A DNA stretch of 64,000 nucleotides from a virus, in the UHGV virus genome UHGV-0134778, one strand, 5' to 3'. How positions within the stretch are numbered: the stretch's first letter is position 1; every line of letters starts with the position of its first letter. Both the position numbers and the translations under genes were made by a program. The notes under the pieces are model-generated. The model was not told the origin of the DNA. It was given only the letters and a program-made list of their open reading frames with translations, and ran no database searches. Shown here piece by piece: positions 5,622 through 38,209 of this stretch.

Positions 5622-6478
5622 AAGTTGTAAAACGGGACGGCAGAGAAGAGGTCTATAACGGAGTTAAGGTAATCAAGGCGGCAGAGTCCGCCTTACTTGA
5701 GTCTGGGCATACTGAAGAAGAAGCTTACCGGATCGCTTGTGCGGTTAATGAAGTTGTTGCCAACAATCTACCAACCGACCAGTGCACGATCTCTGTAAAA
5801 AATATCCATATCCTTGTTGAAGATGCTCTTATGGATATGGGTTTAAAATGTGCAGCCAGAGAATATATCCAGTATAGACAGACAAGAGATAATAACAGAG
5901 AGGCAGGTGGAAAACTGCTTGCAGATATTAGTGGCTTCTTGGATCGAACTTGTGATGAATTTACAAAAGAAAACGCAAATAAGCCCACTAATCATGTACA
6001 TACTCATCGTGACCTGCTTGCAGGTATCCTTAGCAAACACCTTGCATCAACACAGATACTGCCAGATCGTGTCTCCGAAGAGCACAACAAGGGATTCATC
6101 CATGTGCATGATCTTGACTATCTGATCAGTCCGTTAACAAACTGCTGTTTGGTGAATTATCCGGATATGCTGGAAAACGGATTCAACATTGGCAACGCCC
6201 ATGTCAGTAAGCCGAAGTCAATAGGGGTTGCAACAACAATCCTCAGCCAAATCTCTAGTGCAGTAGCTAGTGCTCAATATGGTGGTCAGACCATGAGCCA
6301 TATTGATCATTATCTGGCGCAGTATGCTGAAGCAACCTATGAGAAGAATCTTAAATTTTGTCAGGAACATTGGTTGCCAGATGCTGAGACTGTTGCAATG
6401 CAAATGACAGATAAAGACGTGTTTGATAGTATGCAAACTTTGCTCTACCAAATCAATACGTTAACTTCTGTCAACGGT
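5618..6478 (+). CDS. nrdD: anaerobic ribonucleotide reductase NrdD, exon 1
   Basis: ATP-cone N-terminus (KVVKRDGREEVYNGVKV); frame ends ...SVNG then TAA, which is the first codon of the intron; exon end CAACGGT pairs with intron GCCGTTG (P1, U.G at splice site). Confidence 0.8.
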
Positions 6479-30472: not shown

Positions 30473-30696
30473 GGTTTTAACTCCTATCTATCCGGTTAAT
30501 GATTGGGGGCCGCCCCCCTGATACGTCCTATTATCCATATTGTAGGGCTTGATGCAAGTACTTCTTTAAATTTTTTTAAGCGCCTTGGGGGCCGCTGTAA
30601 CGCTAAAATAATAAAGGCCATGCAACCGCATAGCCTTTATGTGATTATATCGCTTCAGGCCCTGCTAGGGGCCTTATTTTGCATCATTTGCCGGAA

Positions 30697-31040: not shown

Positions 31041-31085
31041 TTTACTTTATTGATGGCCCTGGAGTCAAGGCCATCTAAAAATAAA
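31041..31085 (-). repeat. 45-bp conserved intergenic repeat, copy 1 (promoter-like)
   Basis: TTTACTTTATTGATGGCCCTGGAGTCAAGGCCATCTAAAAATAAA; on minus strand contains TTGACT-N18-TAAATT and an ATGGCC/GGCCAT stem. Confidence 0.7.
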
Positions 31086-31087
31086 TT

Positions 31088-31288
31088 TTACAGATCTACA
31101 ATCTCTTTAATTCGTTTTACTGCTGCCTCAGCGCCTTGAGGGTAGAAATTATGATAACCAATCACGCGGGTAATACTGATCGCCGCTTGGTGGTCCTCGT
31201 AGTCGCCTTTGAATATTTCTTGACCATCAACCAGCACAGCAATTTTTTCTTCTTTTTTGAAGTTAATAACGCGGATATTGTTGCTCAT
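31088..31288 (-). CDS. hypothetical protein (66 aa)
   Basis: Co-oriented ORF. Confidence 0.5.
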   Translation of the reverse strand: MSNNIRVINFKKEEKIAVLVDGQEIFKGDYEDHQAAISITRVIGYHNFYPQGAEAAVKRIKEIVDL

Positions 31289-31772
31289 TTTGTTTCCCCT
31301 TTTGGAACTTTGTCTGTGTGGTGGGGAGTGTCTCCCCGTTGATTGTTATTATCCATATTCTGGACCGGATTGCAACACTCAGGAAGAAAAATTTTTTGAA
31401 AAAAGTTAGGCCCCCAGGGATCGGGGGCCGTTATCAGTTGCTTACAGCGATAAAATACATCCCTACGCCTAACAATATTTCAAGGGCGATGATCTCCAGC
31501 CATACCATAACACGGCGCGCCTTATCGGTGCGGGGCTTATCCTTGGGTGTCATCGTCTCCCTCTTTCCTCCTGTTAGTAGTGACGTGGTTTACAATGGTC
31601 CCCAGGAGTACTATCGCCACGCACATTACGAGAAAAATTATTTCTTCCGTTGTTCGGTCCATTGTTATAAAACCTCTCAAGATCAGGCCTAAAAGTAAAT
31701 CTTTCGTTATTGAATCCGTCACGCCAGGCGGCTGGCTTCAAATCTTCACTAAATGGATTAATTAACGTGGCA

Positions 31773-32144
31773 TTATTTAAACGGTTGGCCCACATATTTT
31801 CTATTCCTCTCAAATAGGCGATCCGCCTCAGTTAAACATATCTCATGGGCGTGATCTCTGGTTTTAGCTTCATCAAAAACCTGTTGTGCAAGGCTGCAAC
31901 GTAGGGAGACTGGAAGATCACTATAATAGGCGTTGACAAACGTTTGAGCGTCGTACAGGTCTGAAAATACTTTACCCTTTCTATTATTCCCCTTGTCAAC
32001 AATTGCAAGGATAACCAATACAATAGTTGCAACCACCCCCAGGAAAATAGATATAATAAACCATAAAAAGGCGGATCTTCCCATCTTGCCAGCGATCCAG
32101 GCGTTAAACAAGGCAACCAATATAGCCAAAATAATAAATTCCAT
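31773..32144 (-). CDS. hypothetical membrane protein (123 aa)
   Basis: Two hydrophobic helices at N-terminus. Confidence 0.55.
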   Translation of the reverse strand: MEFIILAILVALFNAWIAGKMGRSAFLWFIISIFLGVVATIVLVILAIVDKGNNRKGKVFSDLYDAQTFVNAYYSDLPVSLRCSLAQQVFDEAKTRDHAHEICLTEADRLFERNRKYVGQPFK

Positions 32145-32210
32145 TCTATGTACCCTCTTACAATTCTGCGTAGCAATAAGGCGGCAAATATGCCGCCGCC
32201 TGTTACCTGA

Positions 32211-32627
32211 TTAAAAATTATCGCCGTAAATCTTTCCGCTTTCTACCCATACCACCACGCGAGGCATACTATCCCACACGTCTTGTTTTAGATTGAGCGC
32301 GTGCAATTCTTCGGTGGTGCTCATACCAGGCACGGGCTGATTGTATACTGCAAAACGACCACCTGCATAATCATAGGCCAGAGTTAAATCACACTGGATC
32401 ATCTTTTTGATCATGGCGTTAAGCATAGCGTTAGCCGCATATTGGTCACGTTTTAAAGGCAACTCTTTGATTAGTTTGCGATAGTTTTCGATATGGTCGC
32501 ACACTGTTTCACGTGGAAGATCTTTCATATCTTCACGGAATGTAACCAGGTTAAACATAACGGTGTCAATAGCCTTGGTGGTGTTTTTCATGATGTTTTC
32601 CTCTTTGTTTTGTGTGGGGCAAGTCAT
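32211..32627 (-). CDS. hypothetical protein (138 aa)
   Basis: AAAGAGGAAAACATC RBS; upstream GC hairpin. Confidence 0.55.
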   Translation of the reverse strand: MTCPTQNKEENIMKNTTKAIDTVMFNLVTFREDMKDLPRETVCDHIENYRKLIKELPLKRDQYAANAMLNAMIKKMIQCDLTLAYDYAGGRFAVYNQPVPGMSTTEELHALNLKQDVWDSMPRVVVWVESGKIYGDNF

Positions 32628-32681
32628 CTCGCCCCCTTGATTTTTAATATAGCAGGTTTTTAGATTATTGCAACACTTTTC

Positions 32682-33305
32682 TTATGAAAAACTCATCTCA
32701 CCATATTCATCTACATCAAACCGCCAGTCGTTGGCCTGGATGAGGTCGATCAAGGTCTCGACTGCAAATTGTTCGTCGTAGGCATTCTCCAGATCTACGT
32801 AAACCTTGCGAGAAATTTCTCTGACCGTCTCAGTGATCAACTCTTCCAGCTCTTCAACCTTGCTTTCTTGCTTGGCGGTCAGATTCAGCCAAGTAGTATC
32901 AATGTATCCGCTTACAGTGTTTTCGTGACTATGGCGGCTATATGGATCACGCTCAACACTTGCAGATAGCTCGCCATCGTGCATTGTGCCGAACAAGTGA
33001 CGAATTGAGCGGAATTTAGTCAGAGATTTGACTTTACGCAAGAATTTTTCTAAATCAACGTTTTCAGCACTGATTGACGCGCCGTCACCCTGGCACCAAA
33101 AGCCGGACCAATGTACTTCGGTATCTTCAAGGCCATACTCTGGAAAAACATATTCTTTATAGTATTCAATCACGCTTTCTGCAAAAAAGTTATCCCCGCT
33201 GTGTTCTTCTCTTTCGCGGACCATTTCAACGGCTTTTTCTTTTTGTTCGTCGGTCAGCACGTCGAAAGATAAGTTGTAACCTGTGGTAATGTTAACGGTG
33301 GTCAT
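32682..33305 (-). CDS. hypothetical acidic protein (207 aa)
   Basis: AGGAGAAAATATC RBS; promoter and hairpin upstream. Confidence 0.6.
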   Translation of the reverse strand: MTTVNITTGYNLSFDVLTDEQKEKAVEMVREREEHSGDNFFAESVIEYYKEYVFPEYGLEDTEVHWSGFWCQGDGASISAENVDLEKFLRKVKSLTKFRSIRHLFGTMHDGELSASVERDPYSRHSHENTVSGYIDTTWLNLTAKQESKVEELEELITETVREISRKVYVDLENAYDEQFAVETLIDLIQANDWRFDVDEYGEMSFS

Positions 33306-33362
33306 GATATTTTCTCCTGTTTTCTTTATTAGTGGCGGGAAGTTTTCCCGCCTGTGTGTTTA

Positions 33363-33390
33363 ATTATACTTATTGAGATTTACTTGTCAA
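33363..33390 (-). promoter_or_regulatory. sigma70-like promoter (minus strand)
   Basis: Minus strand TTGACA (plus 33385-33390), 16-nt spacer, TATAAT (plus 33363-33368). Confidence 0.5.
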
Positions 33391-33640
33391 CACTATTTTT
33401 TAAATTATTGTGGCGTAAAATGTTCAAGATCTCTTCAACGTCATCAACACGGCGGCAATTTTTAAACGCTACCAATTGCCCCATGATTTTAATCACTGGG
33501 CGGCCTTGCCAGTGCCCCTGGAGAAAGCGCGCCTTGACTTTATCGGTGGAGCTATCACGCCACCAAATGGCCTTGTTGTTGCAGTAGTAAAAATTATTCA
33601 GGACAACATCAACCTTATCAAAATTTTTTAATTTACGCAT
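33380..33640 (-). CDS. hypothetical protein (86 aa)
   Basis: Co-oriented ORF. Confidence 0.5.
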   Translation of the reverse strand: MRKLKNFDKVDVVLNNFYYCNNKAIWWRDSSTDKVKARFLQGHWQGRPVIKIMGQLVAFKNCRRVDDVEEILNILRHNNLKNSVDK

Positions 33641-33881
33641 GGCGTTTACTCCTTTCTCTCTTTGATGTGGTTAGTATAGCTAACCTGTTTAAGATGTCAA
33701 GCTTTAAATAAAATCACTGTCAATAATATTTTTAACGCCATAAAACGGCCCTGGGCGATGTTTTCAGGTTAAGAAAGGGGATTGCATAGGTGGGGGCCTT
33801 TTTGGCGCTTATAGGGCCAACCAGGGGCGCTATTCGTAGGATAGAAATAAAAAGCCCCGCACAATGGCGGGGCGTTGGTTG

Positions 33882-34103
33882 TTATTTGTCTTTATGGCGG
33901 TATCGTTCTGCCTGTCGTTCACGTTCCAAAAGTAGGCCAGGCAATTTACGATCATAATGATTTCGCCAGATCTTTCCAAATCTTTTTGGCTTATTCAGTT
34001 TATTGTTACGCTGGCGGCGTTCCGGCAACTCTTCGGAATCATGAGGACGCTTTACAATTTTTTCGAAATTAATTTTCATAGCTTCCCCCTTTACTGATTT
34101 CAA
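33882..34103 (-). CDS. hypothetical basic protein (73 aa)
   Basis: Co-oriented ORF. Confidence 0.45.
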   Translation of the reverse strand: MKSVKGEAMKINFEKIVKRPHDSEELPERRQRNNKLNKPKRFGKIWRNHYDRKLPGLLLERERQAERYRHKDK

Positions 34104-34440
34104 TATTTGCCTGAATCGCCCGGATACGGCGTTTTATAACCTCCTGATCCGTGCAATCATATCCCCAAAAGTCTACAATTTTTGCGCCCCCAGCTTTTAA
34201 GCGGTATAGTGTTTCTTGCATCTTGTAAGCTGGGATCGGTCGTGGTGTTACCTGGTCGCCTTTCTCATCCTTGTACTTGATAATATAATCTTCATTGTCG
34301 TTGAATACCCAAAATGGGTATTCTGTAAGGGCGTTGCTCTCTTTTTCGTTTTTGGATTGGATCTTGTTTACAATTAAAGCCGTAGCAATAGCGCCAATGA
34401 TAAAACTTGCACCGCTGATCATGTTACTTTCTCCTTTCAT
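34069..34440 (-). CDS. hypothetical membrane-anchored protein (123 aa)
   Basis: N-terminal helix ISGASFIIGAIATALIV. Confidence 0.5.
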   Translation of the reverse strand: MKGESNMISGASFIIGAIATALIVNKIQSKNEKESNALTEYPFWVFNDNEDYIIKYKDEKGDQVTPRPIPAYKMQETLYRLKAGGAKIVDFWGYDCTDQEVIKRRIRAIQANIEISKGGSYEN

Positions 34441-34497
34441 GGTGTTAATAAATTATCTTTATAGATGGCCCTGCAGCCAGGACCACCGAAAAAATAA

Positions 34498-34743
34498 CTA
34501 TTTCACAATGCCTACAAAACAGATCCCGCCTTCCCCGACGTAGGCAATATCGGTCACTTTATAGTCGGTTAAGATCTGTTTATTCAGATCATTAATAAAA
34601 TCGGTCATTGCGTTGGTGTAGTTGTCTTCCATATCTAAGGCATAATCCCAGGTGTAAACCTTTTTACGTCCGAAGCCTTTTACCATGATACGGGCGCTTT
34701 TGGTGTTGGTAGGCGCATAATATTTGGTGATTAGTGCTGCCAT
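34498..34743 (-). CDS. hypothetical protein (81 aa)
   Basis: Co-oriented ORF; 45-bp repeat upstream. Confidence 0.55.
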   Translation of the reverse strand: MAALITKYYAPTNTKSARIMVKGFGRKKVYTWDYALDMEDNYTNAMTDFINDLNKQILTDYKVTDIAYVGEGGICFVGIVK

Positions 34744-34786
34744 GGTTTTAACTCCTCTGTATTAGTTCAGTGTTAACAGTGTAAAG

Positions 34787-34831
34787 TTTACTTTATTGAT
34801 GGCCCTGGAGTCAAGGCCATCTAAAAATAAA
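34787..34831 (-). repeat. 45-bp conserved intergenic repeat, copy 2
   Basis: Identical 45-mer to 31041..31085; diverged copy at about 34457..34497. Confidence 0.7.
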
Positions 34832-34832
34832 T

Positions 34833-35174
34833 TTACTCGTTTTCTTCCAGTTCTGCAAGCTCTTCTTTTGCTTCTTCCAACTCTGTCTGTAATTCCTGGT
34901 ATTCTTCATCGTCCTCAATATCCAGGCTGTCGATGTAGTCGCTAAATCCGCAGCGGTAAGCGATAGGATCTAGCTCCTTGAGGATACGCGACGGAAGAAA
35001 AGAAATGTTTCCGATCATGATTTCGCCGTAGACCTCGTCTAACCATTCATCATAGTTTTCGTCGTACTTGTCCTCGTCGATTTCAAAGTTATCGATCTTG
35101 TTCTCAAGGTCTGCGATCTGTTTTTTCAGTGCGGCAACCTGAATAGCTTTTTCTGCGGTGGTCATAGTAGTCAT
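34833..35174 (-). CDS. hypothetical acidic coiled-coil protein (113 aa)
   Basis: AAAGGAGAAAAC RBS. Confidence 0.55.
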   Translation of the reverse strand: MTTMTTAEKAIQVAALKKQIADLENKIDNFEIDEDKYDENYDEWLDEVYGEIMIGNISFLPSRILKELDPIAYRCGFSDYIDSLDIEDDEEYQELQTELEEAKEELAELEENE

Positions 35175-35225
35175 GGCGTTTTCTCCTTTTGTGTGTTCTG
35201 GGAAGTTTTCCCGTTTACGTGTTTA

Positions 35226-35253
35226 AGTATACCGATTCAGATTAGCTTGTCAA
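35226..35253 (-). promoter_or_regulatory. sigma70-like promoter (minus strand)
   Basis: Minus strand TTGACA (plus 35248-35253), 16-nt spacer, TATACT. Confidence 0.45.
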
Positions 35254-35373
35254 TTAAAAATTTAAGAAAAATTTTGCAAAACTGTTAGCGCTACTCATTA
35301 ACATTTGCGCCAGGATGTACCCGACAACGCAAACGATAATAGTTACCTTTGTGTATTGGCGTGTAGTGCTCAT
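35254..35373 (-). CDS. small hydrophobic peptide (39 aa), below track cutoff
   Basis: GGGGGG RBS; MSTTRQYTKVTIIVCVVGYILAQMLMSSANSFAKFFLNF. Confidence 0.4.
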   Translation of the reverse strand: MSTTRQYTKVTIIVCVVGYILAQMLMSSANSFAKFFLNF

Positions 35374-35408
35374 CTTAAAGCCCCCTTTTTTCGCTTAACT
35401 GAGATTAA

Positions 35409-35453
35409 TTTACTTTATTGATGGCCCTGGAGTCAAGGCCATCTAAAAATAAA
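35409..35453 (-). repeat. 45-bp conserved intergenic repeat, copy 3
   Basis: Identical 45-mer. Confidence 0.7.
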
Positions 35454-35454
35454 C

Positions 35455-35859
35455 TTAGTAAGTTTTCAGTACTTTCCCGTCCAACCTGTCAAGCTGAATC
35501 TCGATAGCTGCAGAAAACCTATTGTACACCACGTCGCCCATGGAATCCAACCAGTCTATGACGTTATATACTTGCTCTTTGTTCTTGCAGGTCCGGATCC
35601 GTTTCATGATGTAAGCCGGATCAATATTGGTACTTTCGTTAGTGTTCCCCTGTACCTGATTTGCCGTATTAGTTACATCTTTAATGGCCTTTACCACCAC
35701 CTGGAAGGGCTTTAAGGTGCCTTTTGCGTTCATCTCACGCGCTTTTGCGGCGCGGTTGTTATATGTTACACAACGGCGGCAAATGTTCACCAAATGCATG
35801 TCAATAATTTTTTCATCGTTTGCCAGTTCGTTCATGATGCGGCGTACGTTCTTATTCAT
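35455..35859 (-). CDS. hypothetical protein (134 aa)
   Basis: AAAGGAAAAAGATC RBS; upstream GC hairpin. Confidence 0.55.
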   Translation of the reverse strand: MNKNVRRIMNELANDEKIIDMHLVNICRRCVTYNNRAAKAREMNAKGTLKPFQVVVKAIKDVTNTANQVQGNTNESTNIDPAYIMKRIRTCKNKEQVYNVIDWLDSMGDVVYNRFSAAIEIQLDRLDGKVLKTY

Positions 35860-35941
35860 GATCTTTTTCCTTTGTGTTGGCGGGAAACATTCCCGCCTTT
35901 TGTGACTAGTTTACTTGAATTTTGCAGCGTGTCAACAATTT

Positions 35942-36404: not shown

Positions 36405-36602
36405 TTATTTTTTATTAAACCAGTGGTTGATCTGTCCTTTTGTCAGGGCGCAACGATTAAGCTGTTGCCGGGTATAGCTCTGACCGCGACGGAATTTATA
36501 AAGGCCTTGCCCGTTGTTGATGGTTACGTCCACCTGGCAAATCATTTGATCGGTGACGGCCTGGCGAGTGTTGCGACGTACTTTAATTCCGTAGGCGTTC
36601 AT
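36405..36602 (-). CDS. hypothetical basic protein (65 aa)
   Basis: Co-oriented ORF. Confidence 0.45.
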   Translation of the reverse strand: MNAYGIKVRRNTRQAVTDQMICQVDVTINNGQGLYKFRRGQSYTRQQLNRCALTKGQINHWFNKK

Positions 36603-37059
36603 GATTTTTATCCTCTCTGTTAATTAGTGTGGTGTTGTTCACCTTGCGAGGATAAGAATAACAGAACTATCCGAGCTGTCAACCGTTAGTTAGAATTATT
36701 TTTTGGGCAGAATTCTCCAGCCGCCGCCACTGCCAGGTTAACCATCATTTTTTCGTACTCTTCTTTATGTTCCAACGCTCCCGCCATAGCCTTTTCAACC
36801 AGGGTGATAGCCTCAGCGTCATTAATCGCTACATTTCCAGGGGATCAAATTACCTTTCATTTTTGTACCTCCTCTTCAATTGTTACCTGCCCTGTAGCAT
36901 AGGCCTACCAGGTTTGCAAGTTTTCACTCTCTCCTACCTGGTCAGTCAGGTCCTGCCAGGCTGGCCCCGCCAGGTTGCAGCGGTTGGTGCATTATGTTAG
37001 AAAAAATTTTTGAAGAAGTGTTGACAGCGGCCCCGCCAGGTGGCACAATATACCTATCG

Positions 37060-37340
37060 AAAGGACGGCAGGCACCGGTGACGGGGGAGACAACCACCGG
37101 GGATAGGCGCTGCATAAAATGAGAACGGTTATCATTATCATTTAAAAATTTATGCAAAAAATCCTTGCTTTCTTTGTCCTGTGTGATACTATAATAACAA
37201 GCCGGGGCAACAGGGGCCGGGAGACAATCACCGGGGGTGCCCGTTATTCTGCAAACGAGAATGATTATCATTCAAAATTCTAAATGAGAACTCCTCGCAT
37301 TTAATAAATTTAATTAGCATGCTAATTACCCTCCGTAACA
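37060..37340. repeat. two tandem copies of an approximately 135-bp repeat unit
   Basis: GGGAGACAACCACCGGGG...GAGAACGGTTATCATT (37084-) vs GGGAGACAATCACCGGGG...GAGAATGATTATCATT (37219-). Confidence 0.65.
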
Positions 37341-37399
37341 ATTTCCTATAAAACAATATCTCATAAAATATTCCCATATATAAATTTTAAAAATCCATT

Positions 37400-37569
37400 T
37401 CTGAAAACGAAAAATCGATTTCGTCCCCAAAAATTTTAGGTCGAGCGCCGGAACGATTTCCAGAAAATCTGATTCAGAAAACGAAAAACAGATCGAGTAC
37501 TAAGAAATTTATCGAGAAAAATTTTCAGAAAATCAGGTATTTGAAATGAAAAACAGATCGAGTACCGAG
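37400..37569. repeat. three iteron-like direct repeats GAAAACGAAAAAC(A)GATCGAGTAC
   Basis: Copies at about 37400, 37475 and 37543 in an A-rich tract. Confidence 0.6.
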
Positions 37570-37879
37570 AGAGATGTGCCGAAACTTTCTGATAGGTAAT
37601 GGACTTATTGTTATAAAAGGTCAGAGGTAAGCTGGGAAAGTTCTGGTAGAAGGGTGAGAGTATGTGCGGAAAATCTGGAATAGTGACTTAAAGTACGGTG
37701 CGAACGATAGAATGAGCAGCACAGCTTATCGTGCCTGTCTTGAAAAAATCCATTTTAGTTTTCGATCCATTTTCTGATTTTCTAAGAATTTTAAAATATC
37801 CGGCCAGGTGAAATATCAAAAGGAGGAAATCCATTTTAGAAATCCTCCTTATGTTTGATGTGCCAGGGATTTTCAAGTA

Positions 37880-38209
37880 TCAACTATCTTTGTTTTTAGG
37901 CTTGTACATGCGTAGAGGTATAGTCTTTGTAACATTCCATCTCCCCAACCCTTCCCAGTTCCAATTGTGAGCGTGATACCCGGTTATGCATGCACTGCTG
38001 GCGTGATCATAAGCATAAGAGAACGCTATGCGAACCAGGTGGGGCCAGTCTTTCCACGGCTGTGGCCCGTAAGCCTTTCTCCAACACCGACACAAACTAA
38101 ATGTCTCAAGAATAGGCAGGATAACAAATCCATACACCACCACCAAGATGATCAGCGCAATGATTGTCAGGAATACATACCCTGCAGTTGAAATAATGAT
38201 CTCTGTCAT
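37880..38209 (-). CDS. hypothetical membrane protein (109 aa)
   Basis: N-terminal helix YVFLTIIALIILVVVYGFVILPI. Confidence 0.5.
   Translation of the reverse strand: MTEIIISTAGYVFLTIIALIILVVVYGFVILPILETFSLCRCWRKAYGPQPWKDWPHLVRIAFSYAYDHASSACITGYHAHNWNWEGLGRWNVTKTIPLRMYKPKNKDS

Follow-up and report, generated by a model that had tools for sequence, protein, structure and literature searches.

An intergenic hairpin repeated in the early region of an rV5-like coliphage resembles the RNase III sites of phage T7 and marks the ends of recombining gene cassettes

In one region of the virus genome UHGV-0134778, a 45-bp sequence, TTTACTTTATTGATGGCCCTGGAGTCAAGGCCATCTAAAAATAAA, occurs in three identical copies and one diverged copy between small genes. 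What this sequence does, and why its copies are so alike, are the questions raised by the 64,000-nt stretch of this genome that was analyzed (the window). An earlier note, made from the sequence of the window, proposed that the repeat is either a promoter class with an operator or a recombination or duplication boundary, and it took the exact conservation to imply strong selection. The evidence presented here points mainly to a function in RNA. The 45-bp repeat is probably the DNA image of a signal in the sense transcript, of the type found in phage T7, for processing by host ribonuclease III (RNase III) and for stabilization of the resulting 3' end. In addition, its copies recombine.

The window comes from an rV5-like coliphage (Vequintavirus, Vequintavirinae) with 92-97% identity to about 120 such genomes, and every gene between 28 and 39 kb lies on its minus strand. 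An exact search found the 45-mer three times on the plus strand, at 31041-31085, 34787-34831 and 35409-35453, as the earlier note had stated, while none was expected from 100 shuffles. The diverged copy that it placed near 34457 was located at 34453-34497 by a repeat finder, which gave 62% identity over a 63-nt family, the similarity among the members thus reaching about 63 nt and extending beyond the 45. The genome-wide search for further copies that it had proposed was carried out with a covariance model of the hairpin family (the family model). In the window, this model detected four members and no more, at 72-80 bits; the complete rV5 genome of 138 kb likewise yielded just four, all of them inside 4.4 kb. 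No further diverged copies were found in the window, in phage KKE7M or in the whole rV5 genome. The copies in the window are the following, with gene lengths in amino acids (aa).

35409 to 35453, minus strand: copy 3, an exact match, 1 nt past the stop codon (35455-35457) of a 134-aa gene; a 39-aa open reading frame (ORF) is next.
34787 to 34831, minus strand: copy 2, an exact match, 1 nt past the stop codon of a 113-aa gene; an 81-aa gene is next.
34453 to 34497, minus strand: the diverged copy, directly past the stop codon of the 81-aa gene; a 117-aa membrane-protein gene is next. Its RNA has the internal loop UC/UAU.
31041 to 31085, minus strand: copy 1, an exact match, 2 nt past the stop codon of a 66-aa gene; a 102-aa gene is next.

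Every copy therefore starts 1-3 nt past the stop codon of its small upstream gene, and from its end it is 24-43 nt to the next start codon.

When read as sense (minus-strand) RNA, the entire 45-mer forms one hairpin,.(((((((..((((((((((....))))))))))...)))))))., which consists of a lower stem of A/U pairs, an internal loop with 2 nt on the 5' side and 3 nt on the 3' side, a G+C upper stem of 10 bp and a tetraloop. The bare 45-mer folds with -19.8 kcal/mol (z -5.3). Flanking nucleotides lengthen the lower stem, which spans 7-13 bp overall, to 10-13 bp, and the sense folds then reach -22.7 kcal/mol in copy 3 (z -5.7), -24.3 in copy 2 (z -6.5) and -23.6 in copy 1 (z -5.9), with family-model scores of 78.7, 79.5 and 80.4 bits, respectively. 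The diverged copy (71.8 bits) takes up the same structure on the sense strand with -20.0 kcal/mol (z -5.5), while its plus strand yields merely -8.1 kcal/mol (z -1.7). Hence, the dot-bracket string is identical in all four sense folds, with energies from -19.8 to -24.3 kcal/mol and z from -5 to -6.5. The inverted repeat noticed earlier is indeed present, as ATGGCC-N10-GGCCAT. However, it is the whole 45-mer, and not only these two arms, that makes up the long imperfect hairpin, which explains why exactly 45 nt are conserved.

Sequence variation provides further evidence for this structure. From 58 copies in 17 sources, 42 distinct 57-mers were obtained, and 30 of these were aligned. Standard pairs fill 95.5% of the pair cells of the proposed structure, compared with at most 58% when the partners are slid by 1-3 columns and 84.1% when the variants are read as antisense RNA. 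Pairing reaches 99.7% in the upper helix, where five pairs vary, each on one side only, and 26 of the 27 changed cells are compatible with pairing in the sense strand (A-U to G·U, C-G to U·G, U·G to C-G, U-A to U·G and G-C to G·U). In the lower helix, four pairs have undergone double changes (AU/GC/GU, UA/CG, UA/AU/GC/GU and AU/UA). The variable sites are positions 3-4 of the tetraloop and the internal loop, and the sequences of the internal loop and the stems are conserved beyond what pairing alone requires. The support for an RNA structure in the sense transcript is therefore good, and the compensatory and wobble changes indicate selection on RNA pairing.

How strong the conservation is depends on the comparison. 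Pairwise diversity in the hairpin, relative to its two flanks, is 0.011 versus 0.064/0.108 for copy 1, which is the least variable, 0.033 versus 0.073/0.102 for copy 3, 0.041 versus 0.047/0.063 for copy 2 and 0.081 versus 0.108/0.073 for the diverged copy. Thus, the hairpin is less variable than its surroundings in copies 1 and 3, marginally so in copy 2 and not clearly so in the diverged copy. The constraint inferred in the earlier note is real, but conservation across genomes is imperfect, and the identity of the copies within one genome results from RNA constraint and concerted evolution jointly. The element is also widespread among related phages, whose lack of it would, according to the earlier note, have helped to refute its proposal: a 61-nt query around copy 2 matched 121 phage records, at about three places each, and all but one of them, a phi92-like phage, are Vequintavirus. 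A pattern scan of IMG/VR for the repeat returned one contig only. Separately, 17 MG0656xx records ("Campylobacter phage", UNVERIFIED, labelled Campylobacter jejuni) share 92-93% identity with the present E. coli Vequintavirus region and have these hairpins as well; mislabelling of the host or contamination is likely.

The hairpin closely resembles the RNase III sites of the T7 early region. The folds of T7 R0.3, R1 and R1.1 have an upper stem of 9-10 bp containing GGCC, a tetraloop, a 2/3 internal loop and a lower stem. The upper stem of R0.3 has 9 bp, and R1 and R1.1 have the same layout as the four copies. Even the letters of the internal loop recur, since the UA/AAU of T7 R1 is that of the three core copies and the UC/UAU of T7 R0.3 and R1.1 is that of the diverged copy. 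In T7, the known cut lies at the end of the 3' internal loop.

A second covariance model was built from the five T7 early sites alone (R0.3, R0.5, R1, R1.1 and R1.3; the T7 model) and applied blindly to both strands of the window with the filters off. The four copies were its four best matches in the window, each of them on the minus strand, gap-free and over the full length: copy 1 with 28.6 bits (E 7e-5), copy 3 with 28.0 bits (E 9e-5), the diverged copy with 27.0 bits (E 2e-4) and copy 2 with 25.1 bits (E 7e-4). In the whole rV5 genome, the three best matches were three of the copies. As a positive control, the model recovered a site of 44.7 bits (UA, 10 bp, tetraloop, 10 bp, AAU) in the early region of an unrelated T7-like Providencia phage. 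In the reciprocal search, the best matches of the family model in the T7 early region were R1.1, R1 and R0.3, at an E above 1 that is not significant. The fifth-best match of the T7 model in the window (20.1 bits, E 0.018) is a different structure at 30598-30654 on the minus strand, between the 102-aa gene and a 94-aa gene. It is a perfect 13-bp hairpin, AUAAAGGCUAUGC-GGUU-GCAUGGCCUUUAU, followed by UAUUUUAG, with the T7-like GGCCUUUAU, and it was also reported by a terminator scan. This hairpin could serve as a terminator, as another RNase III target that lacks an internal loop, or in both ways.

The two systems have further properties in common. Both are intercistronic hairpins of E. coli phages, lie in polycistronic early mRNA transcribed from sigma-70 promoters, occur in several near-identical copies per genome and, as in R1.1, possess a UA/UG distal box. 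In contrast, the rV5 element belongs to an unrelated myovirus lineage, its lower stem is almost pure A/U and takes in the preceding stop codon, its proximal box differs at positions 1 and 3, it has no context of a gp0.7-type phage kinase, and its scores of 25-29 bits with the T7 model lie well below the 44.7 bits of a true site of the T7 group. Also comparable are the early polycistronic transcripts of the B. subtilis phages SP82/SPO1, reportedly studied by Panganiban and Whiteley in 1983. Between their genes lie several highly conserved hairpins, each about 50 nt long and containing an internal loop, which are reported to be cut by an RNase III-type host enzyme; the host and the enzyme differ from those of the rV5 element.

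The recognition rules of E. coli RNase III allow a closer comparison. They comprise 11 bp from the cut to the tetraloop, a distal box with U-A followed by U·G and a tetraloop of free sequence (PMC1540722). In the proximal box, G-C is preferred at position 1, A-U or U-A at position 2 and A-U at position 3, with no G-C or C-G at position 4 (PMC1540722). With an internal loop, cleavage is limited to one of the two strands, and a 3' hairpin with a protective effect remains (PMC1540722, PMC3867540). All four copies form a hairpin of about two helical turns with an asymmetric internal loop at the predicted target site. As in R1.1, 11 bp, non-canonical ones included, separate the predicted scissile bond from the tetraloop if the first apposition of the internal loop is added to the 10 Watson-Crick or wobble pairs. 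Specifically, the core copies have the distal box, with U19-A26 and U18·G27 as the second and third pairs from the loop, and in their proximal box A12-U33 at position 2 and A·A at position 4 agree with the preferences, but positions 1 and 3 do not. By analogy with R1.1, a single cut is expected behind U37, which lies 13 nt 3' of the tetraloop, as follows.

31049/31048, 34795/34794, 35417/35416 and 34461/34460, minus strand: predicted cuts, from R1.1-like geometry.

If the copies are processed in this way, early transcripts that start at the promoters at 35935, 35253 and about 31375 would read through the hairpins. Host RNase III would cut each hairpin once, on the 3' side of the internal loop. 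The hairpin would stay on the 3' end of the mRNA of the upstream cistron as a barrier to 3' exonucleases, while the downstream cistron would be freed as a separate RNA with a 5' monophosphate. The expression and decay of neighboring early genes would thereby be uncoupled, and their stabilities could differ. The first and last of these promoters lie as follows; the second is part of a cassette described below.

35908 to 35935, minus strand: early promoter TTGACA-16-TAAACT (10/12 in a consensus scan, intergenic map), which drives the 134-aa gene upstream of copy 3.
31348 to 31375, minus strand: promoter-like site TTGCAA-16-GATAAT with a 5' hairpin (9/12 in the consensus scan, intergenic map), upstream of the 66-aa gene; a weaker call.

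In three of four cases, the hairpin comes after the first gene behind a promoter.

A number of points weigh against processing by RNase III. The core copies depart from the preferred pairs at proximal positions 1 (U-A, not G-C) and 3 (G-C, not A-U). In the diverged copy, the distal box contains C-G where U·G is canonical, and proximal position 2 is G·U. In the minimal R1.1 substrate, these changes of the diverged copy would lower reactivity (PMC1540722), and it may therefore be a weaker site. The covariation reflects few independent events, chiefly the divergence between the core and diverged lineages. In phage Gotham (L002, MT682716), copy 3 (6313-6352) has a 5-nt deletion (GGGCC), by which its upper stem loses the greater part of the 3' arm. 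This is either a dead copy or a sequencing error; because the deletion destroys the copy, at least that one appears dispensable. The E-values of the home-built models are rough, and the T7 model and the element have some sequence in common (GGCC, AU). The coordinates of the five T7 sites were those that we take to be given by Dunn and Studier (1983), no usable published coordinates having been found, although the folds and the conserved GGCCUUUAUGAU motif of these sites agree with them. Lastly, a search of the rV5 genome paper (PMC3606486) and the literature found neither the element, nor RNase III sites, nor transcript maps of Vequintavirus.

Besides being constrained as RNA, the repeats recombine as DNA. 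Comparison with related phages identified three segments with ends at the copies.

34832 to 35408, minus strand: the segment between copies 3 and 2 (39-aa ORF, promoter and 113-aa gene), deleted in some relatives.
34498 to 34786, minus strand: the cassette of the 81-aa gene, from copy 2 to the diverged copy, deleted in phage 241Ecol014PP.
34787 to 35254, minus strand: a mobile cassette with the promoter TTGACA-16-TATACT (35253-35226), a 5' GC hairpin (about 35200-35212), the 113-aa gene (35174-34833) and copy 2.

The first segment is exactly absent from 4 of 16 Vequintavirus-type loci, namely phiWec189, magaca, ECP32 and an IMG/VR contig (L003, L009, L010 and L012), each of which retains a single hybrid copy, flanked upstream as copy 3 is and downstream as copy 2 is. 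In 241Ecol014PP (L011), the remaining copy is a chimera that is of core type as far as ATAAAG and of diverged type after it (...ATAAAG|ATAA). Its downstream flank is that of the diverged copy, and the exchange breaks two pairs of the lower stem. The mobile cassette is the only contiguous block containing a hairpin that is common to the window and KKE7M, a phi92-like phage (Justusliebigvirus) of another subfamily. The homology, at 94% identity, begins with the promoter's -35 and stops with the final base of the hairpin (34787). Furthermore, copies 3 and 2 of one genome often have derived variants in common (ACUU, ACAC, U9C), which indicates gene conversion. Being near-identical, the copies undergo gene conversion, and they are substrates for homologous recombination that deletes or transfers cassettes of promoter, gene and hairpin. 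Recombination at the copies is shown by these deletions and by the cassette found in two subfamilies, all ending exactly at copies, and the earlier suggestion of a recombination boundary is to this extent correct. The related idea that the repeats bound paralogous genes did not hold, because the flanking genes are not paralogous and have no blastp match to one another below E=0.8.

The region contains a second repeated module. At 33337-33390 and 35200-35253 on the minus strand, and in most other spacers between 29 and 36 kb, a near-consensus sigma-70 promoter (TTGACA-16/17-TAnnnT) precedes, by about 10 nt, a short GC hairpin such as GGCGGGAAAACUUCCCGCC, and a ribosome-binding site comes next. 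With this arrangement, each early mRNA would carry a stem-loop at its 5' end. It is inside one such module that the KKE7M cassette has its left boundary. An extra 351-nt gene at about 30684-30695, downstream of the homologue of the 102-aa gene in many relatives (FFH2, phiWec193, slur12, magaca and others), is missing from the window, and this indel is not bounded by the 45-bp repeat.

The promoter with an operator put forward in the earlier note would have its -35 in the TTGACT of the loop region and its -10 in the TAAAyT at the 3' base of the stem. An UP element would be provided by the A/T-rich 5' flank, a regulator would bind the ATGGCC/GGCCAT dyad, and transcription would start about 7 nt past the repeat. 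The hexamers were correctly described: TTGACT and, after 18 nt, TAAATT or TAAACT are present on the minus strand of all three core copies, and the geometry leaves a leader of 20-35 nt with a ribosome-binding site. Moreover, promoters predicted by PhagePromoter are annotated over copies 1 and 2 in the Gotham record, and a perfect TTGACA arises in some variants. However, the hexamers agree with the consensus at 9 of 12 positions around a spacer of suboptimal length, a grade reached by many chance matches in this region (29 found, 20 expected), while the real early promoters nearby are TTGACA-16-TATAAT/TATACT with 10-12 of 12 positions and spacers of 16-17 nt, followed by a GC 5' hairpin that these sites lack. 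The pattern of conservation does not suit a promoter either. The "spacer" is near-invariant, it and the stretch upstream of the -35 are conserved like the hexamers, the last position of the -35 is the most variable site, and diverged copies have CTGGCT or CTGGTA in place of the -35. Likewise, the DNA dyad is broken in the diverged copy by changes that preserve pairing in the sense-strand RNA only, and this asymmetry, with 95.5% of cells paired in the sense reading and 84.1% in the antisense reading, speaks against an operator palindrome in the DNA. The stringent promoter list of the rV5 authors also omits these sites. A promoter class is consequently unlikely as the main explanation. Minor promoter activity of the element is possible, and both functions can coexist, since minor E. 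coli promoters and T7 promoters adjoin RNase III sites in T7.

It could be argued instead that the element is selected mainly as a recombination module that moves small early-gene cassettes, its RNA structure being secondary. The precedent is the PeSLs of T4-type phages, composites of promoter and stem-loop that flank indels in hyperplastic regions (PMC4122927). Like the rV5 element, PeSLs are short repeated stem-loop elements between small early genes of the ORFan type in a plastic region, with indels or exchanges between close relatives bounded by the elements and with deletion between two tandem copies (PMC2839356, PMC4122927). The loci lacking the segment between copies 3 and 2, the chimeric copy, the KKE7M cassette and the gene-conversion variants all fit such a role. 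Still, identical repeats of 45-60 bp recombine anyway, and selection is not needed for this; a role in DNA homology alone calls for no compensatory or wobble changes. PeSLs are numerous, whereas the rV5 element has four copies in 138 kb, confined to 4.4 kb. A PeSL consists of a terminator-like stem-loop, then a good sigma-70 promoter, a Shine-Dalgarno sequence and a start codon, while the rV5 stem-loop is of RNase III type, has no U-tract and is not followed by a separate promoter, because only 24-43 nt remain before the next start codon and the sole candidate overlaps the hairpin. Selection chiefly for recombination is accordingly a poor prospect, slightly more so than a promoter. Slightly less probable again is a hairpin that binds another phage or host RNA-binding factor and is not cleaved by RNase III, whether as a translational operator, an antitermination signal, a processing signal for another nuclease or a REP-like barrier to 3' exonucleases. 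The RNA structure is well supported, the sequence is conserved beyond pairing needs, some positions of the proximal box are off the RNase III optimum, and RNase III can bind such motifs without cutting (PMC1540722). On the other hand, no candidate factor is known, and the match to T7 in stem length, 2/3 loop, loop letters and distal box would be a coincidence. E. coli REP/BIME elements are also repeated imperfect palindromes 3' of cistrons and can stabilize upstream mRNA, but they are chromosomal, number in the hundreds and have another consensus and no 2/3 internal loop; no similarity to them was found in Rfam at E≤1, where a search of 28-39 kb gave only three chance-level matches, none of them relevant (Clostridium-PBP, snoZ194 and DUF2693). 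Finally, a G+C-rich hairpin right past stop codons might suggest an intrinsic (Rho-independent) terminator. This is very improbable, because on both strands a U-rich run precedes the stem and an A-rich run follows it, which is opposite to the order in a terminator. On the 3' side, the flank reads AAUAAAGUAAA in the sense RNA and UAAAAAUAAA in the antisense RNA, and the terminator scan reported none of the four sites, while it found true terminators with U-tracts nearby at 31429-31409 and 33873-33854.

Two other candidates were dropped. An integron attC-like site was prompted by the imperfect hairpin after each ORF and by the GTTAA downstream, but homologous recombination explains the deletions, the chimeric junction lies in common sequence, and neither the fetched flanks nor the rV5 record has an annotated integrase. 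A mimic of a ToxI-like antitoxin, as in the rV5-like phage phiTE, was rejected because the copies are dispersed and not in tandem.

Processing by RNase III thus appears to be the most probable role of the element, and the surrounding genes offer some hints about its origin. This region corresponds to the leftward early unit ORF164-238 of rV5 (PMC3606486). Pfam and PHROGs assigned no function to the flanking proteins except for a 65-aa ORF (MKINFEKIVKRPHD...) at 33882-34079 on the minus strand, which was matched by Pfam PF08200, "Bacteriophage 1.1 protein" (44 bits, where the cut-off is 21; E 2.6e-11). This homologue of gp1.1 lies one gene downstream of the diverged hairpin, a context that also favors the reading as RNase III sites; in T7, the RNase III site R1.1 is directly followed by gene 1.1. 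The 113-aa protein (34833-35174, minus strand) has a very acidic C-terminal and belongs to PHROG 9294, to which no function is assigned. A tblastn search detected its relatives in many unrelated phages, among them phages of Citrobacter, Vibrio, Klebsiella and Serratia, PAK_P1-like Pseudomonas phages and, in their early regions, T7-like Providencia and Proteus phages. In the Providencia phage PS3, the homologue lies just downstream of a strong T7-type RNase III site (L018, 2856-2905). Three hints, namely the gp1.1 homologue by the diverged copy, the end of the KKE7M cassette and the neighbor in PS3, lead us to suggest, quite tentatively, that RNase III-type hairpins are portable 3' ends of cassettes exchanged among Vequintavirinae, phi92-like Stephanstirmvirinae and T7-like Autographiviridae, and that they have a common ancestry with the T7 R sites. 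If this were so, an RNA-processing signal would double as a junction for shuffling early genes across families, like attC sites or PeSLs. Elsewhere in the window, no convincing ORFs occur at about 36600-37900, where direct repeats of about 47-55 nt, belonging to families D7 and D9 and spaced by 65-74 nt, are dispersed over 37390-37570 in what is a possible origin or iterons; the genome map of rV5 has a "non-coding" box (PMC3606486).

Phages of the rV5 group are widely used in the typing of E. coli O157 and in phage-therapy cocktails. To our knowledge, however, their early gene regulation is essentially undescribed. RNase III signals in the early mRNA of phages are already known, as is the shuffling of cassettes mediated by repeats. 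If the hairpins are RNase III sites, processing of early mRNA by host RNase III extends beyond the T7 group and lambda, and the sites provide precise predicted cut positions. For annotation, such sites should not be labelled as promoters on the basis of the consensus alone, as has been done in one GenBank record. What would be new is a candidate RNase III signal in a different phage lineage and an unusually clear link between its two roles. Overall, the element offers a natural example of a short RNA-structure repeat that is also a substrate for DNA recombination, producing deletions within a genus and forming the boundary of a cassette found in another subfamily.

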